The notes under the pieces were generated by a model. The model had not been told where the DNA came from. It did no database searches and saw only the letters and a program-made list of their open reading frames with translations. DNA of 64,000 nucleotides, from the IMG/VR virus record IMGVR_UViG_3300012942_000033, positions 35,512 through 99,511 of that record. One strand, given 5' to 3'. Positions within the stretch are counted from its first letter, which is position 1, and every line of letters starts with the position of its first letter. This document shows, piece after piece, positions 17,791 through 62,327 of the stretch. This stretch comes from a virus. Taxonomy: Duplodnaviria > Heunggongvirae > Uroviricota > Caudoviricetes. Position numbers and translations under genes: made by a program.

Positions 17791-18226
17791 CATGTTTACA
17801 GGCTCGACCATGTGTTCCAGCGGGGCAAGTGCAGGATGATTTATCACCATCCAAAGTGACCACGTAGATGTCACCCTTGCTGCCTTGGATCTCGAAGCTT
17901 TGAATCTTTGGTGATGGCGTATCGGCATCCCCGGATAACTCCTTGGATCCTAACACCTTGAGATATTCCACGTAATCAAGGTCAATGACTGATTCACCGA
18001 TATGATTGTTTGGCGTCTCCACACCAATCAATCTGAAGGTACCAGGTTTGTCCCATGGGTTGCTGTGAGCCACGATACCGATGGTAGGCAGACGATATTC
18101 ATTCATCCAAGCAAAGGTAAAACGAGTCAAGACCTCGACCCTGGTGCCAATCTTTGGAATCTTAATATCGCTCATAACGCCTTGTAGCAAAACAGGAACC
18201 AAAGTCAAGCCAGCAAATAAATACAA
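17756..18226 (-). CDS. SWIM zinc-finger protein
   Basis: C-terminal CTCPAGTHGRACKH fits the CxCxnCxH SWIM signature. The 3' end overlaps gene 17092..17790 convergently. Confidence 0.5.
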   Translation of the reverse strand: MYLFAGLTLVPVLLQGVMSDIKIPKIGTRVEVLTRFTFAWMNEYRLPTIGIVAHSNPWDKPGTFRLIGVETPNNHIGESVIDLDYVEYLKVLGSKELSGDADTPSPKIQSFEIQGSKGDIYVVTLDGDKSSCTCPAGTHGRACKHVKMAREQMAGS

Positions 18227-26827: not shown

Positions 26828-28615
26828 ATGTGGATAGATCAGGGAGACCACAGAAACCTTTATAACGGGTCGCATCCAAGGCTTACATCTCCGGAGCGGG
26901 GGTTTGCTATGTCGGATGAGCCAGTTAATTTTTCATGGATTGACCAAGCGTTGGTCTATGATCAAGACAAAGAGGAACGAGTGGATAAAGCAATCAAATC
27001 CGACATCAACATCAAGATGCTTACCGAACTCGCTCCTACTATCATATGGACGCGGAATCCTAAGTGGGATTTGACCTATATCAACTCATTCTGGTTTGAA
27101 TTCACTGGATGTCAGGATAGGCCAGTCAGTGAGATTGATTGGCAGGTCTTCATCCATCCTGATGATCTACCTACCATTACAGCTTATTGGAAGACCGCTC
27201 TTGAGCTCAACTTGGAGTTCAAGGTTGATTTTCGCCTTCGCCGCCGAGACGGTGAATATAGGTGGTTCCAATCAGTAAGCCGGCCAGTCACCAACAAAGC
27301 CGGTGAAGTCATTCAGTGGCTCGGTGTTTCGTCGATCATCCAAGACCTCAAAGAGGCACAGGAGGAGACCGAACGTCTTCGTCAGGAACTTGAGGAGAAA
27401 GTTCTCCAAAGAACCCAGGCCCTTGAGGAAGCACAGGCACAGGTTCTAGCCGAAATAAGCGCACGTCAGGCCACCCAGGATGCTCTTCGTCAAGCTCAGA
27501 AGATGGAGAGCGTGGGCCAATTAACTGGTGGCATTGCGCATGATTTCAACAACATGCTCACGGTGATCATTGGTAACCTTGAGTTACTCAAAATGAGTGC
27601 GCCCAAGTTGGGGGATAATCCAGTCGCGAAACGCATGGAACGCAATGTCAGTATGGCGATCGAAGCCTCGATTAAAGCCGAGAAGCTTACTGCTCAGTTG
27701 CTAGCGTTCTCGAGAAAAGCCCGTCTTCAGCTTGAACGTCTTGATGCCAATGCGGTCGTTGTTGGTGTCAGAGAAATGGTTGAACGAGCTGTTGGTATCG
27801 CTGTTAGTTGTGAGATCGACATACAGGATGATCTCTGGCTTTGCCTTTCGGATAAGACCCAGCTCGAGAGCGCAATCATTAACCTGGCTATCAATGCTCG
27901 CGATGCAATGCCTCTGGGTGGTAAGTTGTGTATCTCCACGGCCAACAAGGAAGTTGGTGATCTACGCTTCGTTAGTGTTTCGGTCAGCGATACCGGTCAG
28001 GGTATGAACCTAGAAACCCTGGAGAAGGCTTGCGAACCATTCTTCACCACCAAGGACGTTGGTAAGGGAAGCGGTCTTGGGCTCTCGATGGTTTATGGAT
28101 TCTGCCAGCAAAGCAATGGCAAGTTGATTCTTGAGAGCGAGGAAGGCCATGGCACTACTGTTGAAATGCTCTTCCCCTATACGGCTGGCGAAACCATTGA
28201 GGCCACCCAAGCGGAGGAAGACTTCAACTTTGATGCCAACAAACAAAGCATCCTAGTTGTTGATGATGAACCAGCGGTCAGAGAATTAGCGTGTCAGCTA
28301 TTGACTGATGCGGGGTTCAATGTCGTTAGCGCTCAAGATGGTCAGACGGCCATCAATATAGTCAAAGACCTCACCATACCACTCGACCTTCTATTCACTG
28401 ATATCGTGATGCCAGGCGGCATTGACGGATTTAGTCTAGCCAAGGTGGCCAATCAGGTACGCCCCACTCTACCTGTTATCTTTACGACTGGCCACGCGGA
28501 AGTTGCCCTCAAGGAATTGAGGAAGGATCTGTCGCAGAAGCTCAAAGTCATCGGCAAACCTTACCGGTTGAACGAGTTGAAGCAAATGATCCTTCATGAA
28601 CTGGCTATCCAGTAA
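26828..28615 (+). CDS. hybrid sensor histidine kinase (PAS, HisKA, HATPase_c and C-terminal receiver)
   Basis: PAS-like N-terminus. H-box [20 protein letters not shown]-boxes DTGQGMN and [14 protein letters not shown]. Receiver domain [12 protein letters not shown]...[14 protein letters not shown]...TTGH. The true start may be the downstream ATG (MSDEPVNF). Confidence 0.8.
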
Positions 28616-29625: not shown

Positions 29626-30000
29626 ATGTCGAATGGTCGTATTCTTCTAGTTGAGGATGAGCCAATGCTCCATTTCCTCTGGGAGGATATATGCGCGATC
29701 AACGATTTCGAAGTTGCCTTCACGGCCATGACCTGCCAGGAGGCGCTGGCTTACCTGGAAGAGAATAGTGATGACCTCTCGGGTGTTATCCTTGATGTGA
29801 ACCTACACGGTGAGATGTCTAATAGGGTAGCCGCCTATCTTAGAACCCTTGCCTTGCCAGTGGTAGTATCAACGGGTAGTCATCCAGATACGCTACCTCT
29901 GGAATTCAAGGGATGGCCCACACTTTGTAAACCTTACCGCCCTCACGACATTGTGAGCATTTTGCCAACCCTGGCTTTTAGCAAGCAGACAGTTAGGTAA
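29626..30000 (+). CDS. stand-alone response-regulator receiver (CheY-like) domain protein
   Basis: ILLVEDEP acidic pocket, VILDVNLHG with a candidate phospho-acceptor Asp, and VVVSTGSH. 124 aa with no output domain. Confidence 0.5.
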   Translation: MSNGRILLVEDEPMLHFLWEDICAINDFEVAFTAMTCQEALAYLEENSDDLSGVILDVNLHGEMSNRVAAYLRTLALPVVVSTGSHPDTLPLEFKGWPTLCKPYRPHDIVSILPTLAFSKQTVR

Positions 30001-30464: not shown

Positions 30465-31127
30465 GTGACTCACCGTTCGCTTAGAGCGGTTCACATGGAT
30501 TTCATGGCCTTCCTCACCGCAACGCAGAATCTGGCTTTCCTTATTGCTGGCATTCTCGTAGCAGCAATCTTCGTCGTCGAGTTCCTAGGAACTATGATCG
30601 GGTTCTCCTTAAGTCATCTAGGACCTGACTTCCACATTGACCTAGATCATGATGGCACACCTGATCACCTTGAGGGTGCGGGCCTTATGGCTTGGCTCAA
30701 TCCTGGTGGCGTGCCGTTTATGATCTTCCTCACGTTGGGGACCACTATCTTCGCGATAGTGGGTTATGCGATTCAGGCTGTGAGTTGGTCTAACACCGCT
30801 TACCTTCTGCCTGGATTGGTCATTTGGCCAATTTCATTCCTATTGACGCTCATATGCGTTCGACCTTGGACCCGCTGGATCAACCGGGTTCTACCAAGGG
30901 AAGAAAGTAGCGATGTCAGCCTTAGCAGCCTTGTTGGTGAGTCTGGCGTAGTGACTGTGGGCCCTGTAACCAAAGAGCAATTTGGTTTCATCAGGGTTCG
31001 CGACAAGTTTGGCACTGATCATTCGATCCAGGTCGCAGCAAACAATGATGAGGTGTTTGCGATTGGTGCCGAAGTTCAACTAGTCGGACCTCACCCTACT
31101 AACCTGTATGCGTATCTAATCCGCTAA
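30465..31127 (+). CDS. NfeD-like membrane protein (partner of the SPFH/flotillin protein)
   Basis: Several N-terminal transmembrane helices. C-terminal OB-fold-like segment (GESGVVTVGPVTKEQFGFIRVRDKFGTDHSIQVAANNDEVFAIGAEVQLVG). Lies directly upstream of the flotillin gene, as in NfeD–SPFH operons. Confidence 0.6.
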   Translation: MTHRSLRAVHMDFMAFLTATQNLAFLIAGILVAAIFVVEFLGTMIGFSLSHLGPDFHIDLDHDGTPDHLEGAGLMAWLNPGGVPFMIFLTLGTTIFAIVGYAIQAVSWSNTAYLLPGLVIWPISFLLTLICVRPWTRWINRVLPREESSDVSLSSLVGESGVVTVGPVTKEQFGFIRVRDKFGTDHSIQVAANNDEVFAIGAEVQLVGPHPTNLYAYLIR

Positions 31128-31139
31128 CTGGAGAAAACC

Positions 31140-32876
31140 ATGTCTATCAAGTTCATTGGCTTGCTAGTCGGGCTGGCGGTCGTAGGATTCCTGATCCTCG
31201 GCATGATCATCACCCGGCTATATAAGCGAGCTTCCAAAGAGACTGCCTTCGTTCGCACCGGTATGGGCGGCCAGAAGGTGATCAAGGATGGCGGTGCGCT
31301 CGTCATTCCAGTCGTTCATGAAACCCTCGATATCAATATGCAGACCCTTCGTCTGTCGGTAAATCGCGGTGGTCAGAACGATTCGCTTATCACAAAGGAT
31401 CGCTTGCGCGTTGACGTGAATGCTGAATTCTACGTTCGGGTTGCTCCAGATACGGAGAGCATTGCTACGGCGGCTCAGACGCTTGGTCGGCGAACAATGG
31501 ATCCTAGCCAGCTAAGCACCCTCGTTGAGGGCAAGTTCGTTGACGCCCTGCGCGCTGCCGCTGCTTCGATGGATATGCAGGATCTGCATGAGAAGCGCAC
31601 CGAGTTCGTTCAGAAGGTCAAGACGACTGTTGCGGAGGATCTGAAGCAGAACGGTCTTGAACTTGAGTCGGTCTCGCTGACCAACTTGAACCAGACTGAC
31701 ATCAGTCACTTTGACGCCAACAACGCCTTCGACGCCGAGGGTCTTGCGGTCATTGCCAAGGTCACTAGTGCGCGCCGCAAGGAGCGCAATGACATCGAGA
31801 AGCAGACCGAGGTCGAAATCGAGACCAAAAATCTCGAGTCAACCAAGCGCACCTTGGAGCTCAAGCAAGAGGGTGAATTTGCTCGCCTGGATCAGGAGAA
31901 GCAGGTTCAGACTCGTGCGGCAGAGCAGGAATCGCAGCTTGCTATCGCTCGTGCGGAACGTGAACGTGAGGCGGCTGTCGCTGCTGAAGCGGCGAAGCAG
32001 GCGTCGGAACAGGCTCGTATTGAGCGTGAACGTGGCGTGAAGGTGTCTCAGACGGAAGCTGACCAGGCCACTGAACTGGCGGCTCAGGCCTCGCGTATTG
32101 CGGTTGCGGAGAAGTCAGAGGCAGAATCCAAGGCGAAGGCCAAGGCTGATGAGGCGCGAGCCGAAGCAACCAAGGCTGCTGAAAACGTGACGACCGTTTC
32201 GGCCACCGCACGAGCTGATCGTGAGGCGCAGATTGCGGTTATCGCTGCCGAGGGTGAAGCGAAGCAGAAAGCCGCGAGCATCACGGTTCAGGCCGAGGCT
32301 GAGCTCAAGGCTGCTGATTCACAGGCCAAGGCCAAGGAACGTCTCATCGAGGCTGACGCCAAGCGTTACGAGGTCGAATCCACGGGTCAGCGTTCGCTCC
32401 ATGAGGCTGGCAACGTGATCAGCCCCGAGAGCATGAACTTCCAGCTTCGGAAGGCCATGGTCGAGCGTCTGCCTGAGATCATCGAATCGATGACTAAGCC
32501 CATCGAGAAGATTGACAGCTTCCGTGTCGTTCATATGAACGGAGGCCTCAACATGGGCCATGGTGCTGCCAATGACGGCGCACCGGCTCTCGATAAGGGT
32601 AGCCTGTCGAATCAGATGACTGACGCTCTGCTGAACTATCGTATGCAGGTGCCATTCGTCGACGCGCTGGGCAAGGAACTCGGTATCGATTTCACTCAGG
32701 GCATGAATGGCATGGTGACTTCGGCGGGTCTCCCCGTTGAGGTTTCGGATCTGCCGGAAGAGCCCAAGCCCTCGATTCCGACCGAAGCACCTCGGTCTGC
32801 CACTACTCGTGAAGCCCCGCTGGCTCCTGAGGATAAGGCAGAGATCCAGAAGCTTGCTGGGATCGCCAACGGCTGA
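31140..32876 (+). CDS. flotillin-like SPFH/band-7 protein (FloT/YqiK-like)
   Basis: N-terminal transmembrane helix plus SPFH core, then a long Ala/Glu/Lys/Arg-rich coiled coil (EREAAVAAEAAKQASEQARIERE...). Confidence 0.8.
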   Translation: MSIKFIGLLVGLAVVGFLILGMIITRLYKRASKETAFVRTGMGGQKVIKDGGALVIPVVHETLDINMQTLRLSVNRGGQNDSLITKDRLRVDVNAEFYVRVAPDTESIATAAQTLGRRTMDPSQLSTLVEGKFVDALRAAAASMDMQDLHEKRTEFVQKVKTTVAEDLKQNGLELESVSLTNLNQTDISHFDANNAFDAEGLAVIAKVTSARRKERNDIEKQTEVEIETKNLESTKRTLELKQEGEFARLDQEKQVQTRAAEQESQLAIARAEREREAAVAAEAAKQASEQARIERERGVKVSQTEADQATELAAQASRIAVAEKSEAESKAKAKADEARAEATKAAENVTTVSATARADREAQIAVIAAEGEAKQKAASITVQAEAELKAADSQAKAKERLIEADAKRYEVESTGQRSLHEAGNVISPESMNFQLRKAMVERLPEIIESMTKPIEKIDSFRVVHMNGGLNMGHGAANDGAPALDKGSLSNQMTDALLNYRMQVPFVDALGKELGIDFTQGMNGMVTSAGLPVEVSDLPEEPKPSIPTEAPRSATTREAPLAPEDKAEIQKLAGIANG

Positions 32877-32906: not shown

Positions 32907-33647
32907 GTGGCAGAAGTGCCACCCCTTTCCTATCTGAGTCTTTCTGTTGTAGACATTTCGGTAGCGAGCGCTAATACTGACTCTGACATGAGGAATAGCA
33001 TGACATTACGTATCGGAGGCATCGCAGCTTTGTGTGGTGCAGTTTGTGTCTTTGTGGGTGGTATGGCTGCGTTCCCCTTACATCTTATCGGTGACCTCAT
33101 GGTCAGCACTCCACTATCTGTGGCAACGGGTGTGGGTATTTGGTATTTCTGGCCTGGCCGCAAACCAGCCAATGATATCGAGACTCTGCTGAACGATCAG
33201 GAACTCCTCAAGAATGCGACCGGTCTGAGTAAGCGAGACATCGTCGAGACAATCAGGCTAGTAAGTGATAAGTTGGATCGCATCCTCATGAGTGCTGCTC
33301 AGATAAATGAGCCTAAGGTCACACGTCGTATCCAACATCTTGATGCGATTGGTCGGAAGATCATCGACGAGTTCAGGGTGCGACCCATTGGAATCCAGAG
33401 GTCACAAACATGGATCCATGCCTACTTGGATCAAGCCATTGAGTGCGTCGACCAATATGCTCAATTACATGGATCGAAGATCCGCAATGACGAGGTGCGA
33501 CGTCAGATGGTAGAGTTTGACGATATGTTGGTCGAACTCCAGGAGAAGTCGCAGGAATTGCTTGATCTGCTACTGACCCATGATACGACGACCTTCGATG
33601 TCAATGTTTCAGTATTTCGTGATATGATGAAGAACGAGGGAATCTAA
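32907..33647 (+). CDS. membrane protein (possibly XpaC-like); start likely downstream at MRNSMTLRIGG
   Basis: Two N-terminal transmembrane segments then a helical domain. Its position directly upstream of a TelA-like gene mirrors the Bacillus xpaC–yaaN pair. Confidence 0.35.
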   Translation: MAEVPPLSYLSLSVVDISVASANTDSDMRNSMTLRIGGIAALCGAVCVFVGGMAAFPLHLIGDLMVSTPLSVATGVGIWYFWPGRKPANDIETLLNDQELLKNATGLSKRDIVETIRLVSDKLDRILMSAAQINEPKVTRRIQHLDAIGRKIIDEFRVRPIGIQRSQTWIHAYLDQAIECVDQYAQLHGSKIRNDEVRRQMVEFDDMLVELQEKSQELLDLLLTHDTTTFDVNVSVFRDMMKNEGI

Positions 33648-34810
33648 TGACCGAGGCAACTATGACGCAGACCACCCTACCAGCTCTGACTCCTGAGGCA
33701 TCTCAGGTCTTGGATTCAACCTCGCTGGTTAGTTTGGCGCCGGCAGGCTCAGCGATTCAGATCACGAGTGTTTCTGAAGAGCGAGCCAAGGAGTTGGCTC
33801 AGAAGATCAACATCCACGACACACAGAGCATTATCGGCTTCGGTGTTGAAGCCCAGAAGGGTGTGACCCAGCTGAGTGAACAGATGCTTGAGGGTGTGCG
33901 AACCAAGGATACTGGCCCGGCTGGTGAAGCCCTCAACCTTATGGTTCATGAGATGCGTGGGCTGGATTTCAGCAAGCTCACATCCAAGCAAGGTTTGGTG
34001 GCGAGGATCCTCCACAAGGCCAGCAAGGTCACGCTATTCCTCGAGCAGTATGAAACGGTTCAATCGAAGATCAACAAGACCCAAGCGGTTCTTGATAGTC
34101 ACCGTATCCAGATGCTTCGTGGAGTGAAGGTGCTTGATCTGCTCTACAAGAAGACCCTCGAACTCCTGTATAACCTGGATGAGCAGATCGCAGCCGTTCA
34201 ATATAAACTCAACGAGGTCAACGCTAAGGATATCCCCGAGGCAAATGAGAAGGCCCAGCAGACCAAGGATATGGCTGACACCCAAGCGGCTGCTGATTTG
34301 ATCCAAGCTCGTGATGCCTTGGAGCGAAAGCTTCATGATCTACAGCTGAACCGCCAGATCACCATCCAGGCCCTACCTAGCATTCGTATCGTTCAATCCA
34401 ACGAAGTCGGTCTTTCGGAGAAGATCCAAGGCCAGATCCTCAACGCTTTGCCTCTTTGGAAGCGTAATATCGCACTAGCAGTCGAAATGGCGAAGACGCA
34501 GAATGCTGCCAAGGCCACCAAAGCAGCTAGTGATTTTACCAATGAACAGCTTCGTATTGGTGCGCAGATGCTTCAGCAATCCAACCTAGCGGTTCGAACT
34601 GAAATCGAGCGCGGTATGGTTGACATTGACAGCGTCAAGTTTGCCAACGATCAGTTGATCCAGACTATTGAGGATACGATCACGATCGCTCAGGAGGGTA
34701 AGAATATGCGAGCCCAGGCGGAACAGGAGCTCGCCCAGGCCGAGCAGAAGCTCAAGGAAACGCTTCTGAGCGCTGCTAATCGACAGGCGAATATGAAGGC
34801 TCTCGCGTAA
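33647..34810 (+). CDS. TelA-like (toxic anion resistance) family protein
   Basis: 387 aa, helical, with TelA-like conserved segments (IGFGVEAQKGVTQLSEQML, LNLMVHEMRGLDFSKL). ATGA overlap with the upstream gene. Confidence 0.55.
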   Translation: MTEATMTQTTLPALTPEASQVLDSTSLVSLAPAGSAIQITSVSEERAKELAQKINIHDTQSIIGFGVEAQKGVTQLSEQMLEGVRTKDTGPAGEALNLMVHEMRGLDFSKLTSKQGLVARILHKASKVTLFLEQYETVQSKINKTQAVLDSHRIQMLRGVKVLDLLYKKTLELLYNLDEQIAAVQYKLNEVNAKDIPEANEKAQQTKDMADTQAAADLIQARDALERKLHDLQLNRQITIQALPSIRIVQSNEVGLSEKIQGQILNALPLWKRNIALAVEMAKTQNAAKATKAASDFTNEQLRIGAQMLQQSNLAVRTEIERGMVDIDSVKFANDQLIQTIEDTITIAQEGKNMRAQAEQELAQAEQKLKETLLSAANRQANMKALA

Positions 34811-41056: not shown

Positions 41057-41117
41057 TGGTTGACACTCACCAGTCTGGTGCTAGATCTAGCCTTGAGACA
41101 ACAAGGAGATCGACGTG
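41057..41117 (+). promoter_or_regulatory. conserved promoter/leader cassette (second copy)
   Basis: TGGTTGACAC...ACAAGGAGATCGAC-GTG. The -10-like element is weaker here (GGTGCT). Confidence 0.35.
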
Positions 41118-42242
41118 CTGAATAAGCTGATGACACCGGAGACGAAGAAGCTGAGCAAGGCCTTTGACATGGCCGGCTTCGAAATCCGTTTCGTCGGCGG
41201 CTGCGTTCGGGACGTTCTGCTGGGTGTTGAACCCAAGGATGTGGATTTCTGCACTGACGCCACTCCTGACGAGATGCGCGATATCGCGGTAATCAACAAG
41301 TTCAAGTTCCTGCCCACTGGCATCGATCACGGCACCGCAACCATCGTAGTTGATGGTGAGCCCTTTGAGGTCACCACCCTGCGCGTTGATGCGGAGACTG
41401 ATGGTCGTCATGCCAAGGTCGAGTTCACCAGGGATTTTGAACTGGATGCCGAGAGGCGTGACCTGACCATCAACGCAATGTCGATGGATACAAAGGGCAA
41501 TCTCTTCGACTATTTCGGTGGCCAGGAGGATCTGAAGAACAAGGTCGTGCGGTTCGTCGGTGATGCGAAGACGCGCATCGAGGAGGATTACCTGCGTATC
41601 CTGCGTTACTTCCGTTTCGCGGCTCGGTTCGATGCACAGATGGATCAGGAGACGCTGGATATCTTCAGCGATCCTGAAGTGCTGGCTGGTCTGAATCGAG
41701 TTAGTGTTGAGCGGTTCTGGTTGGAGATGTCAAAGCTGCTGACCTATAGCGCTCGGGTGCGAGTCATGGAGGCTATCTTTGGCACTGGCGTCAATGCTTC
41801 GTTGAATCTGTTTCGGTTCGAGCCCAATGAGCTGAGCCGGGCCGATGATGCGGTGGCCGCATTGGCAACGCTGATCTCGAGCGACGACGAGGAGCGGTTC
41901 TTCCAAATCTGGAAGATGAGCTCTCCGGAGGAGGCAAAGGTTCGCAACATGATCCGTAACCGCGGTGGGTTCCTGGATGAAGTGCGCGTTGAGGTCATGC
42001 TGACCCGCGATAAGTTCCCCAGGGATCACGTGGTGAGCCTGGCTCTGGTCGCCAGTGAGCCCACGCTGGCTCAACATGCTAGGGATTTTGTTGTTCCGAC
42101 CTTCCCCATTACGGGTAAGGATCTGATGGGTGTTGGTATGGCTCCAGGCCCACAGATGGGTCAGCGCCTGCGTCGGATGGAAGCAGCCTGGGTTGATAGC
42201 CGGTGGAACCTGGCCAAGGAAGCCCTGATGGAGATCGAGTAA
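41115..42242 (+). CDS. CCA-adding tRNA nucleotidyltransferase / poly(A) polymerase family protein
   Basis: Class II nucleotidyltransferase head motifs: FVGGCVRDVLLG, DVDFCTDATPDE, GIDHGTATIV, RRDLTINAMS. GTG start. Confidence 0.8.
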   Translation: MLNKLMTPETKKLSKAFDMAGFEIRFVGGCVRDVLLGVEPKDVDFCTDATPDEMRDIAVINKFKFLPTGIDHGTATIVVDGEPFEVTTLRVDAETDGRHAKVEFTRDFELDAERRDLTINAMSMDTKGNLFDYFGGQEDLKNKVVRFVGDAKTRIEEDYLRILRYFRFAARFDAQMDQETLDIFSDPEVLAGLNRVSVERFWLEMSKLLTYSARVRVMEAIFGTGVNASLNLFRFEPNELSRADDAVAALATLISSDDEERFFQIWKMSSPEEAKVRNMIRNRGGFLDEVRVEVMLTRDKFPRDHVVSLALVASEPTLAQHARDFVVPTFPITGKDLMGVGMAPGPQMGQRLRRMEAAWVDSRWNLAKEALMEIE

Positions 42243-47193: not shown

Positions 47194-47646
47194 ATGGCTT
47201 TGGTTGATCCAGAACGACCGGAAGATCAGATGGCTTTACTCGATGAAGCCAGCATCTACTTCCTGCGAGCAATCAAGCAGCATTATACCCGAGATACATC
47301 ACTTGATGTAATGGAAGCCCTTACGCCCATTCTGGGTAAGGATTGGAAGGGGCGGATCATCTTTGGTCTGATGGCGAATAAGCACCAGGCCATTAGGGCT
47401 ATCAGTATTAACCGTATGACTGCCCCTGCACTTGTGAATAAGATCAAGGCAATCAAGGAAGTTCGAGCAATCAGTCGGTTGGGTCTCGTTGAAGCTAAGA
47501 CTCTTGTTGAGGCGGCGTATGAGCGCTCACAGGTTGTTAAGGTGGCTGAGCAGCCCGAAACCATGTCTCAGGATAGTTGGAATCTGATCCTAAGCAATAG
47601 TATCAACGCCATCAAGGATGCTGGCTTTAGAGTGGAGATCTCATGA
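47194..47646 (+). CDS. hypothetical protein
   Basis: 150-aa ORF with a GTTGACAC box upstream (47144-47152). Confidence 0.5.
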   Translation: MALVDPERPEDQMALLDEASIYFLRAIKQHYTRDTSLDVMEALTPILGKDWKGRIIFGLMANKHQAIRAISINRMTAPALVNKIKAIKEVRAISRLGLVEAKTLVEAAYERSQVVKVAEQPETMSQDSWNLILSNSINAIKDAGFRVEIS

Positions 47647-49270: not shown

Positions 49271-50620
49271 TTAGAACTTGACCTTCTTCAAGGCCTCTAC
49301 CTCTTCACGATAGATGGCCTTGCGGCGTTCGGGGTCTTTGAGGATCGCCTTGTATTCCTTGATGTCAGCTTCAAGCAATTTGATCTTAGCCAACACATCA
49401 GCGTAGGCGTCTTTGGTCCAACGATGAGCTGGTAGATTGACTATGCGGTCAATACGCTTCTCATCTAGCTTCAACTTGGTTGTGACCTTGCTGACATCTA
49501 GATCCAATGAAGCACGGTCCTTGATACCGCCCAGGCGTGCTGGTAGCTTATCATCAAAACACAGTTTGACGCCCTTCCAGAAGCCCAGTTCATAGTCGTT
49601 CTTGGCTACTAGGTTCTCATATCGCACCTTATACCAGCCAAGCCGCCATTCGACGAAATCCTGAATGAGCTTCTCGGCGCTATCATACTGACGAATTGAT
49701 GAACCGTTCCAATCAATGACCACGATACGCTCGCTCTTCTTCTGCTTGAGCTTGAAGTAGTCAATGGCCCGATTCACATTCCAACCTCTGGCTGACCCTC
49801 TGGGTAGCTTGATCGTAATATCAATGGCATCAGTGGAGCGATCCGTGTACATCGAGATACGATTCTCATCCTCATACGTGTTGAGTCGTTCTTTGAACTT
49901 CTCGAGAGTCAGATCAGGTGGAAGCTCAGTGATCTTGATCGTGCTGGTGTCTAGGATCTCGAGCTTACCAGTAAATTCCCATGAGTTCTCCTCAAGGTGT
50001 TTCACACCAATGTCATAGAGCTCATATGATGGAGCGATCCTCTTGAGCTTCTTACCATCCAAGACATCGAGAGTGGCCTGAACTAGGTTCTTGAAAGAGC
50101 GGGGAAGGATCTCCGTACTCCAGCCCACTGCGATACCCGAGACGCCATTGAGCAATACCGTTGGTATAAGAGGAAGGAAGTGTTGTGGCTCGATGGTTGA
50201 CCCGTCATAGTTCTCCTTGACTGGCACGATATCCATATCAGGAAACATCAACTCCTGAGCGGCCTTGCCCCGCTTAACATAGGTATAACGGGGGGCTCCA
50301 ATTCCATCAACAGGAGCAACACGGGTTCCGAATGACCCAATACCATCTAGGAGTGGCACGTTGTTGACATAGGGTGCGGCGAGCATCGAGATCGAACCAG
50401 CAGCACTCTGGTCACCATGCAAATAGAGCCCACTCGATATCATTTCTCCGGCCAATGAAACGGTCTTGATCTTATCCTGGCGGCTCTTGACCAACCATAA
50501 TGCTTTACGTTGGGCGTCTTTGAGCCCATCAGCAACCTTTGGAATGGCGCGTGACTCACAAACGTAGATCGAATATTCTCGAGAGGTGTCTAGGATATAG
50601 TTTGAGCTATTCTGGGTCAT
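49271..50620 (-). CDS. DNA topoisomerase II medium subunit (T4 gp52-like, GyrA-like catalytic domain)
   Basis: IPKVADGLKDAQRKALW aligns with GyrA LPDVRDGLKPVHRRVLY. Active-site Tyr context GAPRYTYVKR. Confidence 0.8.
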   Translation of the reverse strand: MTQNSSNYILDTSREYSIYVCESRAIPKVADGLKDAQRKALWLVKSRQDKIKTVSLAGEMISSGLYLHGDQSAAGSISMLAAPYVNNVPLLDGIGSFGTRVAPVDGIGAPRYTYVKRGKAAQELMFPDMDIVPVKENYDGSTIEPQHFLPLIPTVLLNGVSGIAVGWSTEILPRSFKNLVQATLDVLDGKKLKRIAPSYELYDIGVKHLEENSWEFTGKLEILDTSTIKITELPPDLTLEKFKERLNTYEDENRISMYTDRSTDAIDITIKLPRGSARGWNVNRAIDYFKLKQKKSERIVVIDWNGSSIRQYDSAEKLIQDFVEWRLGWYKVRYENLVAKNDYELGFWKGVKLCFDDKLPARLGGIKDRASLDLDVSKVTTKLKLDEKRIDRIVNLPAHRWTKDAYADVLAKIKLLEADIKEYKAILKDPERRKAIYREEVEALKKVKF

Positions 50621-55026: not shown

Positions 55027-56898
55027 TTAGAGCCCGATCCAGGCCTTTCGATCATCTGACCGCTTACTGTTGAAGATCAAATCCAGTGTCTCCTCCATCT
55101 TGCCATCATCGACTACTGGATAGACCTCTGGGTTCTTGAGTGAATATTCCCAATCCTCACGAGTCAAAGTGCCAAGACCTTTAGCTCTGGTAATGGTCCA
55201 ACCGCTATAGGCTTCAGGGCTGAAATCCTGGTAGTTATGAGCATACCAGTATTTGCGCGTCTTACCCCTCTCCGCGATGATGAAGGGCGTGCGGAAGATG
55301 TGAACGAATGGGTGCTTTGGATCCTGAAAGAGTTCTGGCCAATAGGTGTGGAAGAAGTTGATCAGCAGGGCACCGATGTTGAGGCCGTCTGGGTCCATAT
55401 CATGGGCCACATAGACCTTGCCATAGCGAAGATCATCCAATTTGGCCTTCTGGCCAATTACCAAACCCAGGCAATTCATGATGTCACCGAGTTCCTTGTT
55501 ATCGATGACCTTCTTGGGTGATTCTCCATTCACATTGAGCACCTTACCCTTCATGCCTAGACCACCATGAAGATCAGGATCTCGGCAACTCCCCATACCC
55601 GAGATAGCGCTCTCACCTTCGGCTAGGAAGAGGATACACTTGGAACGATCCTTACCAGTGGCATCCATGAGCCTTGGAACCTTATTGCGGAGGTTCTTCT
55701 TCGCCGCCTTCGCGATATCAGCGGCATCTTTCTTCATCGTGCGCTCAGCACAACGCTTGTAGATATCCTCAATCCAGTCTCGGTTCTTACGGATGAACTC
55801 CTTGTAGAGATCTGGATTTTCGAGATGAGCCTTGATGATCCTGCTGACTTCCTCGTTAATCAGGCGGGTTTTGCTTTGACTATCGAAGTTAGGGCCATGC
55901 ATGTTGGTGATGTTGTAGATGAGTACACCTTCGGTGACATCTGAGCGGTTGGGTTGGAGGCGACGTTTCTTTGATTCACGTTCAAGAGCGGTAAGGAGAT
56001 TACCATAGAAGAGACGGCGGAAGGTCTCGATGTGAACACCACCATTGAATGCTGGAATGTTGTTGACGATCGTATGAACGTGTTCTCCTGATTCGATCCA
56101 GTTGGGCACAATCCAGAAGCGACTACGGAAGGTGTCTTCCTTGATCTCAATGGCCATTGGCTTCATACCGGGGAATAAGGTCTGCTCAGGTCGGGGCTTA
56201 ACCTTGATCTGCTCACCATTGTAGTAGATCTTGATCAGAGGGTTACAGATAGCAACCTCAGTAACTCGAGAGCGGATGAATTCCTCAGGAAGGATCAGAT
56301 CGGAGAAGACTTCACTGGATAGCTTGAATGTGATCTTCGTGCCATTCTGGCCTTGCCTCTTCGTCAGCTTGACCTTACCAAACTGAAGCGAGTCACCAAA
56401 TACCGCATTACCCTCGGTGAATTCCTGTTGGAACCTCTCGCCATCCTTCTGGATATCTAGCTTGAAATACTCGGAGCAGAAGTTCACGACACTGGCGCCA
56501 ATACCATTGGTACCCGCAACTTCGCCTCGTTCTTCAAAGTTACGACCAGCTCTCGCCTCTGTCATAACCAACGTGGCTAGGTGCATCTTATGCGCGTCAT
56601 CATAGGCGATTGGAATACCCCTACCATCATCCTCAACGCTCATTTCTCGAGTCGTTGGATCATAGGTCACTCTGATCTTACTACCAAAGCCATGACCCAC
56701 AAGTTCGTCGAGTGAGTTATCGAGGATCTCTCGGAAACCCGTATAGAGGGCTGGAACCCAAGTGGTTTCGACAGGAGTGGGCTTACCATCCACAAATTCC
56801 AAAATGGTCTGGGTATGTGGCGCGCGGCTACCCAGATACATTTCCGTTCGCAATCTCGCGTGCGAGTAATCAGAAAGTTTCTTAATGTTGTTTGACAT
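55027..56898 (-). CDS. DNA topoisomerase II large subunit (T4 gp39-like; GyrB-like ATPase plus Toprim)
   Basis: GHKL ATPase N-terminus (LRTEMYLGS...ILDNSLDE...DDGRGIP). Toprim segment CILFLAEGESA aligns with GyrB LyLVEGDSAGG. 623 aa. Confidence 0.85.
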   Translation of the reverse strand: MSNNIKKLSDYSHARLRTEMYLGSRAPHTQTILEFVDGKPTPVETTWVPALYTGFREILDNSLDELVGHGFGSKIRVTYDPTTREMSVEDDGRGIPIAYDDAHKMHLATLVMTEARAGRNFEERGEVAGTNGIGASVVNFCSEYFKLDIQKDGERFQQEFTEGNAVFGDSLQFGKVKLTKRQGQNGTKITFKLSSEVFSDLILPEEFIRSRVTEVAICNPLIKIYYNGEQIKVKPRPEQTLFPGMKPMAIEIKEDTFRSRFWIVPNWIESGEHVHTIVNNIPAFNGGVHIETFRRLFYGNLLTALERESKKRRLQPNRSDVTEGVLIYNITNMHGPNFDSQSKTRLINEEVSRIIKAHLENPDLYKEFIRKNRDWIEDIYKRCAERTMKKDAADIAKAAKKNLRNKVPRLMDATGKDRSKCILFLAEGESAISGMGSCRDPDLHGGLGMKGKVLNVNGESPKKVIDNKELGDIMNCLGLVIGQKAKLDDLRYGKVYVAHDMDPDGLNIGALLINFFHTYWPELFQDPKHPFVHIFRTPFIIAERGKTRKYWYAHNYQDFSPEAYSGWTITRAKGLGTLTREDWEYSLKNPEVYPVVDDGKMEETLDLIFNSKRSDDRKAWIGL

Positions 56899-57038
56899 GA
56901 ACGACCCTTATTCTTTGGTGTAATCTACGGTTTCACCCTCCTGAACGTCAATCTCCAGCTCAGGCACAAATTGATTTATCTTTCTTGCGCTTTGGGGAGA
57001 ATGAGCCTAATAATTCCTGCTTAGGATGGAGGTGCTCT

Positions 57039-57452
57039 GTGAAAGCCTATGAGATCATTGAAACCGATGAAAAGCCGCGGCGCGGTTATCAGGCCTTTGA
57101 GCTCGATGCGGCAAGTCGAAGCCATTTGGCCAAGATCTTCCCTCCTAAGTTCCCCGAGTTCATTGGTCATCACATCACCTATGCCTTTGGCGTGATGTCT
57201 AGTGATCCCCTGCCGGAGGCTTCAAGGATTCAGGTTGTAGGATATGCCTGTGATCCAGAAGGTATTGAAGCCTTGGTCGTATCCATTGATGGTACGACAG
57301 AACGGCCCGATGGTAAGACTTTTCATATCACTTGGTCTTTGGATCGTAGCGCGGGTTTCAAGCCAGTGAATTCCAATGATCTTATTGCGAAAAGGGGTTG
57401 GTCAAGGATGCGTGGATCGATAAATATTGTCGCCACCGCTAGGTTTTTCTAG
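57039..57452 (+). CDS. 2H phosphoesterase (LigT / cyclic phosphodiesterase-like)
   Basis: Two H-x-T-x motifs (GHHITYAFG and TFHITWSLD) at the spacing expected for the 2H superfamily. GTG start behind GGAGG. Confidence 0.45.
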   Translation: MKAYEIIETDEKPRRGYQAFELDAASRSHLAKIFPPKFPEFIGHHITYAFGVMSSDPLPEASRIQVVGYACDPEGIEALVVSIDGTTERPDGKTFHITWSLDRSAGFKPVNSNDLIAKRGWSRMRGSINIVATARFF

Positions 57453-57545: not shown

Positions 57546-57932
57546 ATGGCAAAGCTTCACAAGCACCTTATCGTTCATGCAGAAGTTGACCGCCCTCCCC
57601 TGAAGGAGGATGAACGATTTGTTGAACAATGGCTCACACAGATCGTTCACAATATGGGTATGGAGGTGCTCAAAGAGGCTTCAGCTGAATATTGTGAGCA
57701 GGTGGGTAACCGCGGCATGACTGCTGGAGTTTACATCACCACCTCACACATGATCCTCCACACCTGGGATGAATGTGAACAGCCCTTCATCGAGTTCGAC
57801 ATCTATACCTGTAGCGATCTCGATCCGGAGATGGCATTCAAGGCTCTTGAGGTCTTTGGTGCCAAGAACATCTCTTACAAGTTCATCGACCGTTACAATG
57901 GTCTGACTGACTTGGATGCCGGCAAGCGCTAA
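57546..57932 (+). CDS. S-adenosylmethionine decarboxylase-like protein (SpeD/SpeH class)
   Basis: YITTSHMILHTWDE aligns with the AdoMetDC self-cleavage and active-site segment (ESHisiHTWPE); about 128 aa. Confidence 0.55.
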   Translation: MAKLHKHLIVHAEVDRPPLKEDERFVEQWLTQIVHNMGMEVLKEASAEYCEQVGNRGMTAGVYITTSHMILHTWDECEQPFIEFDIYTCSDLDPEMAFKALEVFGAKNISYKFIDRYNGLTDLDAGKR

Positions 57933-58010: not shown

Positions 58011-59276
58011 ATGGCATTCATTCTTTTCACCTTCCTCATCGCGATGGCTATCAGTAGTGTCGCGGCATATTTCTCACTTGTTGGTATGGGCACCCTGTTT
58101 GCGGCAACATTCTGGGGTGTAGTCATCATGGCTGGCACTCTAGAAGTGGGCAAGATCGTAGCGACCAAATGGGTTCATGCCAATTGGCGCAATCCGAGAG
58201 CTCCTTGGTATTTCAGAGGTCTATTCTGTGTTTTCATCGCAGCTCTGATGATCATTACCAGTCTTGGTATCTACGGCTATCTCAGTAAGGGCCATTTGGA
58301 GCAGAAAGCACCAATCGCTGGTCTGGAAATTCAAGTCAATCAGCTCGAGGTTCAGATCCAGCAGAAGCAGGCTGAAAATCAGCAACTTCAGACACGCCTG
58401 GATCAGATCAGCAGGATCACTGATAAGAGCTTGGAGAAGTCTGGCACTAGAGCCCTTTGGGTTGCGAATAGCCAGAAGAAGGAAGCAGCGAATATCCAGG
58501 ATCGTATCAACGATAATTTTGATGCTATCAACGCCCTGAATACCAAGTTGGTTCCACTCAAGACTCAAGGTGCGGAGGTGGAGGCCAAGTTAGGCCCAGT
58601 CAAGTACGTGGCTGAGCTATTTGGTCTTAAGGATCCAGAATACGCCGTCAGGATCGTGATCTGTATTATCATGGTGGCCTTCGATCCATTGGCTCTGAGC
58701 CTCTTCATCGCAGGTAGCATTTCACTTACAGATTGGCGTGAGAAGCGTCAGGCTGAAAAAGCAAACTCTGGTCAGGTGTTACCAAAGGAAGAACTTCAAA
58801 CCTCCTTACCAATGGTGGATGAGCCTCAGCCCGCTGATTCCATTTTGGAGCAACTCGATCCTATAGAGGGCGAGGGTCACTCGGTTGATATCCAGGATTT
58901 CAACAAGGCATTCGATGATGAACGTCGCGAATTTGAGACGGTTCGTTCGGATCTAGAACAGCAATTCATCCAGCAAGCTGCTGATCTGGATAAGCGAGCC
59001 ACCACCATTCAGCAGGATGAAGAAGCTCTTCAGACGGCTCACCAACAACTCCTTGAAATGGAAGCCCGTCTTACTGATGAGCGTGACCTCCTGAAACAGT
59101 GGGAAGATCAGCTAACCCAGCAACAGACGGTCATCAATAATTGGGTACCGCCCTCGGAAGATACCCGGAGTGACAAAGAGAAGATCATCGAGATGCTCGA
59201 GCGGAATCCGCAGGTGGTGAATGAAATAGTGAGCGTGGTTGATGCCATGCGCCCACCCTTTAGACCAGGTCTATAA
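58011..59276 (+). CDS. membrane-anchored coiled-coil protein
   Basis: Three N-terminal transmembrane helices, then a long Gln/Glu-rich coiled coil, and a further hydrophobic segment near residue 200. Confidence 0.55.
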   Translation: MAFILFTFLIAMAISSVAAYFSLVGMGTLFAATFWGVVIMAGTLEVGKIVATKWVHANWRNPRAPWYFRGLFCVFIAALMIITSLGIYGYLSKGHLEQKAPIAGLEIQVNQLEVQIQQKQAENQQLQTRLDQISRITDKSLEKSGTRALWVANSQKKEAANIQDRINDNFDAINALNTKLVPLKTQGAEVEAKLGPVKYVAELFGLKDPEYAVRIVICIIMVAFDPLALSLFIAGSISLTDWREKRQAEKANSGQVLPKEELQTSLPMVDEPQPADSILEQLDPIEGEGHSVDIQDFNKAFDDERREFETVRSDLEQQFIQQAADLDKRATTIQQDEEALQTAHQQLLEMEARLTDERDLLKQWEDQLTQQQTVINNWVPPSEDTRSDKEKIIEMLERNPQVVNEIVSVVDAMRPPFRPGL

Positions 59277-59361: not shown

Positions 59362-60618
59362 ATGAGTGAAACCAAAAAGAATCTGAGCTGCTCTTTCTGT
59401 AGCAAGCGACAGGAAGACGTTCAGAAGCTAATTGCTGGCCCTGATGTTTTCATCTGTAATGATTGCGTTCAGCTTTGCGCAGATATCCTCAAAGAGGATG
59501 AGGGCGCGATTGCTTCCTTGGGTTTCAAAGACGGTATTCCTAGCCCTCGCCAGATCAAGGAGTTCCTGGATCAGTATGTGATTGGGCAGGATGAGGCCAA
59601 AATGGTCATGGGTGTTGCGGTTCATAATCATTACAAGCGTCTGGCCAATCCAGTCGTTGATGATGTTGAACTCGAGAAATCCAATATCCTCCTACTTGGC
59701 CCCACCGGCTCCGGTAAGACCCTGATGGCTCGAAGCATTGCGAAGCTTCTTGATGTGCCTTTCACGATTGCTGATGCGACCAGCCTCACTGAAGCAGGTT
59801 ATGTGGGTGATGATGTCGAGACGATCATCACACGCCTACTCCAAGTCTGTGATAATGATGTATCGAAGGCAGAGCGTGGTATCATCTACCTGGATGAGGT
59901 GGATAAGAAGGCTAAGAGGGGTGATTCTGCTTCCATTAGTCGTGATGTCTCGGGTGAAGGCGTCCAACAAGCCCTCCTCAAGATCATTGAGGGTAGTGAA
60001 GTTCGAGTTCCAGTAACGGGTAACCGCAAACATCCTAATGCCGAAATGGCGGTCGTAAACACCAAGAATATCCTCTTCATTGTTGGTGGGGCCTTCGTGG
60101 GTCTCGACGATATTGTGGCCAAACGCCTCAACAAGAATCGAAGCGGCATTGGTTTTGGGGCGGCGATCCAAATGGCTTCTGATCCAAAGAAAGCAGCTAG
60201 CGAGGCTTTCCTCAAAATGGTCGAACCAGAGGATCTAACCAAGTTCGGTCTGATACCTGAACTAGTGGGCCGTCTTCCGGTTATTACCAATCTAGAAGAG
60301 CTAGATCAGGATCAAATGGTTAAGGTACTCACTGAACCCAAGAACGCGCTAGTGAAGCAATTCCAGAAGCAGTTCCAACTCGCTGGGGTTCAATTGGAAT
60401 TCGATGAGGATGCCTTGAGGGCAATCGCCAAGGATGCGATTATCCGTAAGACTGGAGCACGTGGTCTTCGAAGCGTTATCGAAAAGCGCTTGATCAAGGT
60501 CCAATTTGATCTACCTGATCTCAAGGCTCAAGGGGCCCATGCGGTTCGAGTAAGTCAGGATGTCATTACTGGTTCGGCCGAACCACTCGTCGTTTATGAG
60601 AAAGCGGCCAATGAATGA
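59362..60618 (+). CDS. clpX: ATP-dependent Clp protease ATP-binding subunit ClpX
   Basis: N-terminal C4 zinc-binding domain (CSFCSKRQEDVQKLIAGPDVFICNDCVQLC). Walker A LLLGPTGSGKTLMA. ClpX-type IGF-loop region and sensor motifs. Confidence 0.85.
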   Translation: MSETKKNLSCSFCSKRQEDVQKLIAGPDVFICNDCVQLCADILKEDEGAIASLGFKDGIPSPRQIKEFLDQYVIGQDEAKMVMGVAVHNHYKRLANPVVDDVELEKSNILLLGPTGSGKTLMARSIAKLLDVPFTIADATSLTEAGYVGDDVETIITRLLQVCDNDVSKAERGIIYLDEVDKKAKRGDSASISRDVSGEGVQQALLKIIEGSEVRVPVTGNRKHPNAEMAVVNTKNILFIVGGAFVGLDDIVAKRLNKNRSGIGFGAAIQMASDPKKAASEAFLKMVEPEDLTKFGLIPELVGRLPVITNLEELDQDQMVKVLTEPKNALVKQFQKQFQLAGVQLEFDEDALRAIAKDAIIRKTGARGLRSVIEKRLIKVQFDLPDLKAQGAHAVRVSQDVITGSAEPLVVYEKAANE

Positions 60619-60678
60619 TTGACACCAATTACGCTCGTGTTAATCTCCCCGTTATCTATAGGAAAGGAAGTACTGCCT

Positions 60679-61197
60679 GTGAGTTCTAATTATGCGGTGA
60701 ATGACCAAATCCGAGCAAGGGAGGTCAGACTCATCGCCGACAATGGTGAGCAAGTTGGAGTCATTTCAACCATTGAGGCTCGCCGCCGGGCTAATGATGC
60801 CGGCTTGGATCTAGTAGCCATCAATATCAGCAACGGGGTTCCGATCTGTAAGATCCTCGATTATGGCAAGTTCAAATATGATCAGAGCCGTAAGGATCGC
60901 GAGAATGCGAAAAAGAATCGCGAATCACGAGTAGAGCTCAAAGAGATCCAGCTCAGGCCCACCACAGACAGTAATGATATAGCGATCAAAGCCAAAAGAG
61001 CTCAAGGCTTCCTCGAGGATGGCAATAAGGTCAAAGTCATCCTGAAATTCAAAGGGCGTGAGATCACTCACATGGATGTTGGCGCACAGGTAATGCAGAC
61101 CTTCCTTGCCAGCCTGAGTGACTACAAACTGGAACGCCCGGTAAGCCGCAGCGAACGGCAACTTTTTACGATCTTGGTGCCTCTCCCCAAGAAGTAA
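60679..61197 (+). CDS. infC: translation initiation factor IF-3
   Basis: Aligns along its length with E. coli IF3: IRAREVRLI vs IRAQEVRLT, GLDLVAIN...PICKILDYGKFKYDQSRK vs GVDLVEIS...PVCRIMDYGKFLYEKSK, and KEIQLRPTTD...KFKGREITHMDVG vs KEIKFRPGTD...RFRGREMAHQQIG. The start is probably non-ATG (GTG at 60679 behind GGAAAGGAAG); the TTG at 60619 is the alternative. Confidence 0.8.
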   Translation: MSSNYAVNDQIRAREVRLIADNGEQVGVISTIEARRRANDAGLDLVAINISNGVPICKILDYGKFKYDQSRKDRENAKKNRESRVELKEIQLRPTTDSNDIAIKAKRAQGFLEDGNKVKVILKFKGREITHMDVGAQVMQTFLASLSDYKLERPVSRSERQLFTILVPLPKK

Positions 61198-61220
61198 ACC
61201 CTAGGAATAAACCAGAAGAT

Positions 61221-61246
61221 TGATCACAAGGGCGGCCTTGTGATCA
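61221..61246 (+). terminator. rho-independent terminator-like hairpin
   Basis: TGATCACAAGG-GCGG-CCTTGTGATCA lies downstream of infC. Confidence 0.5.
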
Positions 61247-61561
61247 ACTCTGTCTTGGCCTATTGTGAATTCCAATCTGATTGACTGTTCATCGCCCGTT
61301 AAGATTCCTAAACAAGGCATCTTGGATGGTAGATTCTGATAAAGCATTGATATTCAATGACGTAAGCCAGATGATCAAAAGGTTCTGGAGGTTTCGTTGC
61401 ACCGCAGTAACTATTTTTCGTAACTTTTAGGCTTGTGTGGATTAAGCTCTTAGCATAGCTTGATCACACAGCACGACACAGTTGAGGGGGTGACGGGTTG
61501 TAAGGTGTAGCCGGGTCGCGCCAGCAACCACCTTTACCGAAAAACAAATTGTATAGGAGCG

Positions 61562-62270: not shown

Positions 62271-62327
62271 TGGTTGACACCCTGGCTTCCTATGTTAGTC
62301 TGAGCCTAAACATAGGAGATCGACTTG
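62271..62327 (+). promoter_or_regulatory. conserved promoter/leader cassette (third copy)
   Basis: TTGACA at 62274-62279, an 11-nt spacer, TATGTT at 62291-62296, then CATAGGAGATCGAC-TTG. The leader can form the TCCTATGTT/AACATAGGA hairpin. Confidence 0.45.

Follow-up and report, generated by a model that had tools for sequence, protein, structure and literature searches.

Are adjacent genes for the unfoldase ClpX and translation initiation factor IF3 in a tailed phage genome genuine phage genes, and does their adjacency reflect a shared role during infection? The question is raised by a 64,000-nucleotide stretch of DNA (positions 35,512 to 99,511 of IMG/VR record IMGVR_UViG_3300012942_000033), referred to here in its entirety as the window, in which clpX is followed by an IF3 gene and preceded by a gene for a 421-residue protein that we call p421 (Table 1). 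The original prediction, made from the sequence alone, had described a full-length ClpX adjacent to a recognizable IF3, and had proposed that the phage manipulates host translation quality control and proteolysis. In our analyses this interpretation was partly supported, as gene identity, phage origin and the translation/proteolysis theme were right, while an analogy drawn between the IF3 start codon and that of cellular infC, and an assumption that ClpX would depend on host ClpP, need correcting. Our best explanation, which taken as a whole we consider probable, is that both are genuine phage genes, that the pair is inherited within a colinear island of phage genes, and that the products would act through the ClpXP, transfer-messenger RNA (tmRNA) and IF3 mechanism proposed below.

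Table 1. Coordinates of the ClpX and IF3 genes and of other features of the window (position 1 is its first nucleotide)
Feature	Position	Strand	Evidence or remarks
clpX: full-length ClpX, 418 aa, ATG start	59362..60618	+	NCBIfam, Pfam, E. coli structure alignment
infC-like gene: two-domain IF3, 172 aa, GTG start	60679..61197	+	TIGR00168, Pfam, PDB matches, start-codon analysis
clpX-IF3 spacer, 60 nt	60619..60678	+	Sequence
12-bp GC-containing hairpin, 23 nt past the IF3 stop	61220..61247	+	Fold dG -27 kcal/mol, z -4.3
p421: 421-aa predicted inner-membrane/coiled-coil protein, no named family	58011..59276	+	AlphaFold2, conserved neighbor
Topoisomerase II large subunit (GyrB-like), synteny anchor	55027..56898	-	Pfam on public contig; divergent from p421-clpX-IF3
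Topoisomerase IV subunit A-like, second synteny anchor	49271..50620	-	PF00521 on public contig
tmRNA, permuted, alphaproteobacterial type, tag ANDNTVEVALAA	26262..26772	+	ARAGORN; Rfam RF01849 98.8 bits, RF04321 70.3 bits
CCA-adding enzyme	41115..42242	+	Pfam PolyA_pol head domain E 4e-34, tRNA_NucTran2_2
L7/L12 C-domain-like protein	47194-47646	+

Identification of the ClpX and IF3 genes

The clpX open reading frame (ORF) scored 590 bits (E 2e-177) against NF003745, the NCBIfam equivalog model for ClpX (cut-off 359 bits), with residues 4-416 aligned to profile positions 2-413, and 554 bits against TIGR00382 (cut-off 371 bits). Its product has the Pfam domains zf-C4_ClpX (E 8e-17, residues 9-45), AAA_2 and ClpB_D2-small, and solved structures of E. 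coli ClpX (PDB 8e91/6wrf) align with it from end to end (E 2.6e-149; 57.8% identity), the two proteins sharing length, architecture and all functional motifs. The four cysteines of the zinc-binding CxxC...CxxC motif (C10/C13/C32/C35) match those of E. coli in the alignment, and the Walker A (GPTGSGKT, 113-120), pore-1 loop (GYVG, 146-149), Walker B (YLDEVD, 176-181) and sensor-II (GARGLR, 365-370) motifs are all present. The RKH loop (222-224) and the ClpP-docking loop (GIGFG, 262-266, with the IGF at 263-265), the latter of which the original prediction had singled out for checking, are identical to those of E. coli. Judged by these motifs, the window ClpX is complete, with all of the elements predicted for ATP hydrolysis, substrate grip and ClpP docking.

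The same elements recur in the ClpX proteins of related phage loci. In a multiple alignment of 72 linked phage ClpX sequences, the zinc cysteines, Walker B, sensor-II arginine and pore-1 loop are kept in every member, as is a ClpP-docking tripeptide of the form [IVLMF]G[FY], and RKH is retained in 60. We infer that ClpP docking is under selection across phage ClpX.

The IF3 ORF scored 177 bits (E 2.5e-52) against the infC model TIGR00168 (cut-off 60 bits) and contains IF3_N (E 1.5e-27) and IF3_C (E 6.7e-26), so that profile searches confirmed both members of the predicted pair. Solved IF3 structures align with residues 3-171 of the product (E ~2e-36). It consists of an N-domain, a lysine-rich linker and a C-domain, with no extension and no extra domain, and shares these domains, the linker and the 30S-binding residues with the cellular IF3s of E. 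coli and G. stearothermophilus (PDB 8jsg, 5me0) at ~40% identity; across cellular or relative IF3s the identity is 42-52%. At the positions equivalent to E. coli Y75, R99, D106, K110, R129, R131 and R133 the window protein has Y, R, D, K, K, K and R, respectively. More widely, 33-34 of 34 phage IF3s have the equivalents of E. coli R25, K72, Y75, R99, D106, K110, R/K129, R/K131, R133 and E134. Some phage IF3 positions do depart from E. coli (R116 to G/E; Y107 to I/L).

The maximal IF3 frame (60619..61197, plus strand) opens at a TTG at 60619, directly past the clpX stop, and the conserved protein starts about 20 codons downstream of this codon. No in-frame ATG was found in the window sequence upstream of the IF3 N-domain, and start-codon analysis found no AUU-class codon with a Shine-Dalgarno sequence at the IF3 start. 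The best candidate is GTG 60679, which is preceded at normal distance by the Shine-Dalgarno sequence GGAAAGGAAG (60661-60670). Genes called independently on a public ENA contig of identical sequence include one with this start and the same 172-aa product. Of the 12 loci of the jumbo-phage clade whose ClpX genes are linked to topoisomerase genes, all have a GTG preceded by a Shine-Dalgarno sequence at the aligned position; in distant phage lineages the IF3 start is ATG. GTG 60679 is most likely the start, as judged from these comparisons.

Autoregulation of cellular infC depends on a non-canonical AUU-class start codon that is discriminated against by IF3 itself, while GUG belongs to the canonical class. 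The GTG is therefore no evidence for infC-like feedback, and of the claim that IF3 uses a non-ATG start "as cellular infC does" the first half stands and the analogy fails to carry over. The gene context differs also, since cellular infC lies in a thrS-infC-rpmI-rplT operon and the window gene lies outside any such operon.

Antisense ORFs within clpX and the IF3 gene (of up to 134 aa) were considered as further genes and dismissed as by-products of the coding strand. Chance matches are ruled out for ClpX and IF3, as they are for the tmRNA and the CCA-adding enzyme that the original prediction had cited as context and that we recovered with dedicated searches (Table 1).

Relationship to isolated jumbo phages

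A search with 24 kb of the window found no near-identical deposited phage. In a distant DNA search, Phosso (469 kb) matched across ClpX and IF3 at ~71% identity, and Atu_ph07 (490 kb) also matched. The closest isolates are the Sinorhizobium phages Phosso and AP-J-162 (471.5 kb), and because there is no near-identical record the window phage is a different, uncultivated species from both. Database relatives of p421, ClpX and IF3 occur together on IMG/VR viral contigs, several of which are 462-470 kb, and an identical ClpX is encoded on a 125-kb public contig. The source of the window is most probably an uncultivated jumbo phage of the Atu_ph07/Phosso/AP-J-162 type known from Rhizobiales, with relatives of 460-490 kb. 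Its host is probably an alphaproteobacterium, with which the alphaproteobacterial type of the tmRNA is consistent. Other window genes are consistent with a jumbo phage, including those for the large and small subunits of ribonucleotide reductase, a DnaB-like helicase, a PAAR-hydrolase protein, SpeD and the L7/L12-like protein.

In Atu_ph07 (genus Polybotosvirus), ClpX is gp2 (AUZ94814.1) and IF3 is gp1 (AUZ94813.1). Atu_ph07, Phosso and the window are alike in having topoisomerase IV subunit A and the topoisomerase large subunit on one strand and ClpX, then IF3, on the other. Identities between window and Phosso (PV764938) proteins are 65% for ClpX, 52% for IF3, 70% for the topoisomerase large subunit and 67% for subunit A; the corresponding values for Atu_ph07 are 55-56, 45-46, 60 and 57%. 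Further features shared with Atu_ph07 are one or more hypothetical genes before ClpX, a GTG start with a Shine-Dalgarno sequence for IF3, a TTGACA box at the clpX stop, and a downstream ClpS gene on the same strand. There are also differences: Atu_ph07 has no p421 homolog upstream of ClpX, and Phosso has a 143-aa ORF in place of p421; the GC content of Atu_ph07 is 37% versus ~49% for the window; and Atu_ph07, unlike the window, has no tmRNA (PMC11242549). A blastn search with the window tmRNA against deposited phages gave no match.

Two small genes lie between the topoisomerase large subunit and p421. The first (56985-57452, plus strand) encodes a phrog_36523 protein with an HHxT-like motif, whose homolog is the ORF upstream of ClpX in Atu_ph07. 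The second (57546-57932, plus strand) encodes the S-adenosylmethionine decarboxylase SpeD, which recurs near ClpX in several distant loci.

Much of this arrangement is already present in the literature. For AP-J-162, clpX was reported directly beside IF-3 (gp547) and topoisomerase genes, and a tmRNA, S21 and L7/L12 were listed (PMC11242549), an inventory that is also present in the window phage. Seven Clp proteins, among them ClpX (gp2), ClpP (gp676) and ClpS, were described for Atu_ph07, and its ClpX was linked to the neighboring topoisomerases (PMC6102473). The Atu_ph07 ClpX and IF3 accessions are cited in a comparative jumbo-phage study (PMC7824862), and IF3, S21, tmRNA and CCA-adding enzymes are established in huge phages (PMC7162821). 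Annotations of Atu_ph07 and Phosso thus already include the ClpX-IF3 pair, as does the published description of AP-J-162, and the window adds another, uncultivated example. Our literature search found no experimental work on phage ClpX or IF3.

A more distant isolate, the Salicola phage SCTP-2 (440 kb), which infects a halophilic gammaproteobacterium, shares the backbone of the neighborhood with the window phage. Its genes 197-192 encode, on one strand, two topoisomerase II proteins, a p421-like protein, ClpX, a hypothetical protein and ClpS. Unlike the window, SCTP-2 has no IF3 in this region, its topoisomerase genes are co-directional with clpX, and its ClpX is ~36-38% identical.

A colinear gene island around phage ClpX

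To place the window in a wider context we used 80 loci from IMG/VR, each with a gene for a ClpX relative. The bacterial clpP-clpX layout is missing from 79 of these and present in only one. In 65 of 75 assessable viral loci a p421 homolog is the adjacent upstream gene, and ClpX is immediately followed by IF3 in 34 of 81 assessable loci, the contigs of which range from 8 kb to >500 kb. Across 69 linked loci of uncultivated phages the genes are on the same strand and strictly colinear in the order p421, ClpX, IF3, S21, Hsp20 and ClpS, with IF3, S21 and Hsp20 each optional: 37 loci have IF3 or S21, 40 have Hsp20 and 46 have ClpS. The loci without IF3 have S21 or an exonuclease directly after ClpX, and in three loci ClpP is found within 10 kb. 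On three mid-size contigs, neighboring genes match viral protein families.

A compact form is that of locus L017 (2524-7602), which Pfam searches confirmed and which has a p421-like gene, a 142-aa ORF, ClpX, IF3, S21, Hsp20 and ClpS within 5 kb. The window island is stretched, with IF3 60 nt after ClpX, S21 at ~3.8 kb and ClpS at ~6.6 kb. The last two lie past the end of the window on the ClpX/IF3 strand: S21 at 15044-15307 of locus L003 (about window positions 64405-64668) and ClpS at 17898-18191 (about 67259-67552). A NUDIX gene is also present on this strand of the public contig beyond the window end. Together with the L7/L12-like protein inside the window, S21 and ClpS are further translation and proteostasis genes. 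In 40 of the loci with a p421 homolog (e.g., L009 6388-6819), a conserved, unannotated family of ~130 aa is encoded between that homolog and ClpX; it is absent from the window, Phosso and Atu_ph07. We found no description of the island, or of the p421 family, in the searchable literature.

The AlphaFold2 model of p421 is all-helical (mean predicted local distance difference test score, pLDDT, 81), with three predicted N-terminal transmembrane helices, a long helical hairpin, a fourth transmembrane helix, a disordered linker and a long C-terminal helix. The strongly conserved motifs of the family are GIYGYLSKGHLEQ..AP, LVPLK...EVEAKLGPVKYVAELFG and AFDPLA. No family in Pfam, NCBIfam or PHROG includes p421. 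A Foldseek search of its fold against the PDB returned generic coiled-coil matches only (best E 0.026, template modeling score < 0.3), and the BFVD matches are uncharacterized viral proteins only. DUF4407, suggested by one homolog with an E-value of 1.6e-4 (below the cut-off), was considered for p421 and rejected, as only one of 40 members matched it. The family is large, with 2,518 cluster representatives at E <= 1e-30 in an exhaustive profile search. Some homologs occur without ClpX (in Pelagibacter phage Mosig, XacN1, Xoo-sp13, RsoM2USA and others), and the p421-ClpX linkage may therefore be synteny rather than partnership.

Co-inheritance and phylogeny

Pairwise ClpX and IF3 distances among the 34 loci with both genes are highly correlated (r = 0.90, a value reached in none of 2000 permutations), with IF3 diverging ~1.3 times as much as ClpX; both genes have therefore been inherited together. 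In a neighbor-joining tree, the phage ClpX proteins with these neighbors are separate from clpP-linked cellular ClpX, and the jumbo clade linked to topoisomerase genes is recovered with 85% bootstrap support. The window ClpX clusters with the phage proteins and not with those encoded by clpP-linked cellular genes, with weak support. The gene context is likewise distinct, as cellular clpX is found in the order clpP-clpX-lon and the window gene has p421 upstream and IF3 downstream. All of the cellular ClpX loci examined have clpP upstream and none has IF3. The scan of cellular contigs with ClpX, which used peptide patterns specific to the window, yielded 15 scattered loci of at most 56% identity, which served as an outgroup only and are uninformative on the closest cellular donor.

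Expression signals between and after the two genes

The clpX stop and the inferred IF3 start overlap or touch in about 21 distant loci (as ATGA or TAATG or TAGTG, or with the start within the clpX 3' end), which suggests that IF3 is translationally coupled to clpX in these lineages. A different arrangement is seen in the window, where the hexamer TTGACA (60619-60624) abuts the clpX stop and a possible extended -10 element, TGTTAATCT (60638-60646), lies 13 nt past it. A TTGAC[AC] motif is located 0-5 nt from the clpX stop in the window, L004, L005, L010, Phosso and Atu_ph07, in flanking sequence that differs. Because of this conservation at the same site in several phages, which is our sole basis for reading the motif as a promoter, IF3 in the sub-clade of the window is apparently transcribed from a separate sigma-70-like promoter at the clpX end.

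The box is overlapped by a weak 9-bp hairpin, GAUUGACAC/GUGUUAAUC, at 60617-60645. The spacer hairpin is weak in both the window and L004 (z about -1.4 to -1.5) and strong in L005, L010 and Phosso (z -3.7 to -4.3), where it shares the position and has unrelated sequences; that of Phosso has 16 bp. The coordinates of the hairpin in relatives are 11264-11292 in L005, 11259-11293 in L010 and 7100-7136 in L001. A similar pair, TTGACACC...TGTTAGTCT, is present at 62274-62301, upstream of the next large ORF (62325). The composite TTGACACC...TGTTA[AG]TCT occurs at the clpX stop (60617-60646) and at 62274-62301, and is a candidate promoter, operator or RNA processing site.

The hairpin past the IF3 stop is more stable than chance would produce (0 of 200 shuffles were as stable), and it forms a terminator-like site on both strands with a weak U-tract. 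It is probably a terminator or a transcript-stabilizing element. It lies near the beginning of a region of ~360 nt after IF3 (61198-61561) that has no convincing ORF and no Rfam or tRNA match; the matching region of Phosso has two small ORFs and a tRNA-Ile.

A proposed role for the pair, and alternatives

In the mechanism that we propose, ClpX would form a ClpXP protease, the ClpP of which would be either the product of a distant phage gene, of the kind that both cultured relatives carry, or that of the host. Substrates of the protease would be proteins marked by the phage tmRNA, whose tag has LAA at its end, and possibly certain regulators of host or phage. Proteobacterial ClpX recognizes degrons of this LAA type through its pore and RKH loops. 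ClpS would deliver N-degron substrates to ClpAP. With the phage S21 and the L7/L12-like protein, the additional IF3 would maintain a supply of 30S subunits that are free and competent for accurate initiation, so that phage mRNAs could be translated in a stressed or slow-growing host. IF3 would be expressed from its own sigma-70-like promoter at the clpX end in the sub-clade of the window, and through coupling to clpX translation in distant lineages.

The identity of the ClpP partner is a point on which our interpretation departs from the original prediction, which had reported no clpP in the window and had presumed that ClpX would use host ClpP or act as an unfoldase or adaptor. We likewise found no clpP in the 64-kb window, nor in the 6.6 kb beyond it. 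Atu_ph07 and Phosso, however, each encode a ClpP far from clpX (82% identical to each other), and the docking tripeptide is universal among the linked phage proteins, so the presumed dependence on the host, or on unfolding alone, does not follow. We consider a phage ClpXP at least as likely as a partnership with host ClpP.

Several observations weigh against the proposed mechanism or against parts of the evolutionary history behind it. Among the matches listed in two scans of viral contigs, one with the Atu_ph07 ClpP and one with a Phosso-led alignment, there was no ClpP from the closest environmental relatives of the window. Neither SmpB nor SspB was seen among the ~40 window ORFs scanned, a scan in which small ORFs were not covered exhaustively; trans-translation would therefore depend on host SmpB. 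The monophyly of all phage-linked ClpX has 44% bootstrap support with a small cellular outgroup, and a single ancient origin of phage ClpX is therefore suggested rather than shown. Neither a consensus promoter scan nor a count of TTGACA-N15-18-TANNNT revealed enrichment over shuffled sequences, and the TTGACA box could belong to the hairpin instead of to a promoter. Lastly, the entire mechanism is drawn from conservation.

The best surviving alternative, which we regard as quite possible while not favoring it, is that the adjacency has no functional meaning: ClpX and IF3 would have entered an ancestral T4-like or jumbo phage once, in a conserved region of early genes or close to replication genes, and would have remained side by side as frozen synteny with each acting independently. 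Since the whole neighborhood of topoisomerases, p421, ClpX, IF3/S21, Hsp20 and ClpS is colinear, any two of its members look linked. About half of the ClpX loci have no IF3 and have an exonuclease or S21 in its place, IF3 seemingly has its own promoter in the sub-clade of the window, and phages such as Mosig and XacN1 have p421 homologs without ClpX. Set against these points are the ~21 distant loci in which the IF3 start coincides with the clpX stop, implying co-translation, and the persistence of the pair down to ~50% identity in ClpX and 35-45% in IF3. Moreover, what recurs after ClpX is a 30S initiation protein, be it IF3 or S21, followed by proteostasis genes, a succession that looks functionally themed.

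A more far-reaching view than our overall explanation, and one that we offer only tentatively, is that the ClpX-IF3 pair gives a glimpse of an ancient phage island, passed down vertically, whose members work together, with ClpX representing a distinct phage lineage and not a recent capture from a host. If this were true, p421, the ~130-aa protein where present, ClpX, IF3/S21, Hsp20, ClpS and sometimes ClpP would constitute a "ribosome and proteome takeover" set. A membrane-anchored partner or substrate of ClpX, protease adaptors and 30S initiation proteins would then be co-expressed, and in places translationally coupled, in an island common to T4-like and jumbo phages of many environments.

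Returning to the proposed mechanism, a second alternative is that ClpX serves mainly as a ClpP-free unfoldase or remodeler in phage DNA replication or virion assembly, comparable to its action on lambda O and Mu transposase. Proximity to topoisomerase genes, which is kept in Atu_ph07, Phosso, SCTP-2 and the window, underlies published suggestions of this kind for Atu_ph07 and AP-J-162 (PMC6102473, PMC11242549, PMC7824862), and the lack of a nearby clpP agrees with it. We think it unlikely. A docking loop kept in 72 of 72 proteins is hard to explain without ClpP binding, and it is because ClpP docking appears to be under selection that we read ClpX as part of a ClpXP protease rather than as a lone unfoldase. 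Both cultured relatives encode ClpP. The topoisomerase genes lie on the other strand, and outside the jumbo clade most ClpX loci lack them; the same-strand neighbors are translation and proteostasis genes.

For IF3, the corresponding alternative is a takeover tool that, through excess or altered IF3, biases initiation toward phage mRNAs or suppresses leaderless or non-canonical starts of the host, thereby contributing to host shut-off. The faster evolution of IF3 relative to ClpX, its limited identity to cellular and relative IF3s and its departures from E. coli at R116 and Y107 would fit such a role, and an "interception and redirection" of translation has been proposed in the literature (PMC7162821). 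This specialized role nevertheless seems improbable to us, as the residues central to 30S binding and fidelity hardly vary, as in normally functioning IF3, and the protein has acquired no extension or extra domain.

A cellular origin of the region, whether as genes of the host or as a bacterial contig binned in error, is scarcely credible: ClpX and IF3 are typical cellular genes and the window has several other genes of bacterial type (see below), but the clpP-clpX-lon and thrS-infC-rpmI-rplT contexts are missing, the cellular ClpX loci all have clpP upstream and never IF3, the gene order is that of the isolated phages Atu_ph07 and Phosso, and the nearest relatives are viral contigs of 462-470 kb.

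Other genes of the window

Directly downstream of the tmRNA is a gene for a hybrid sensor histidine kinase with PAS, HisKA, HATPase_c and receiver domains (26828-28615, plus strand). A stand-alone receiver-domain protein (29626-30000, plus strand) and a protein with four PAS domains (7715-9376, minus strand) are also encoded, so that the phage genome carries two-component signaling hardware in the form of kinase, receiver and PAS proteins. Two bacterial-type pairs of membrane-stress genes follow on the plus strand: YqiJ and then a flotillin/SPFH protein (30465-32876), arranged as in E. coli yqiJK, and beside this pair an XpaC-like "Halogen_Hydrol" protein and then TelA (32907-34810). The gene that ends at the tmRNA gene (25235-26269, plus strand) encodes a PAAR motif fused to a cell-wall hydrolase domain; its product is probably a tail-spike tip or injection protein, oddly placed beside RNA and signaling genes.

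Implications for large phages

We consider the comparative result on the island to be worth more than the gene pair alone. Phage ClpX is nearly always found in the same colinear gene set, with p421 before it, IF3 or S21 after it, and then Hsp20 and ClpS. Within this set, p421 brings to attention a membrane-protein family that has thousands of phage members and no name in the databases. The arrangement leads to the hypothesis, testable in culturable phages, that large phages may bring a coordinated kit for proteolysis and translation initiation into the cell, and not random single host genes.

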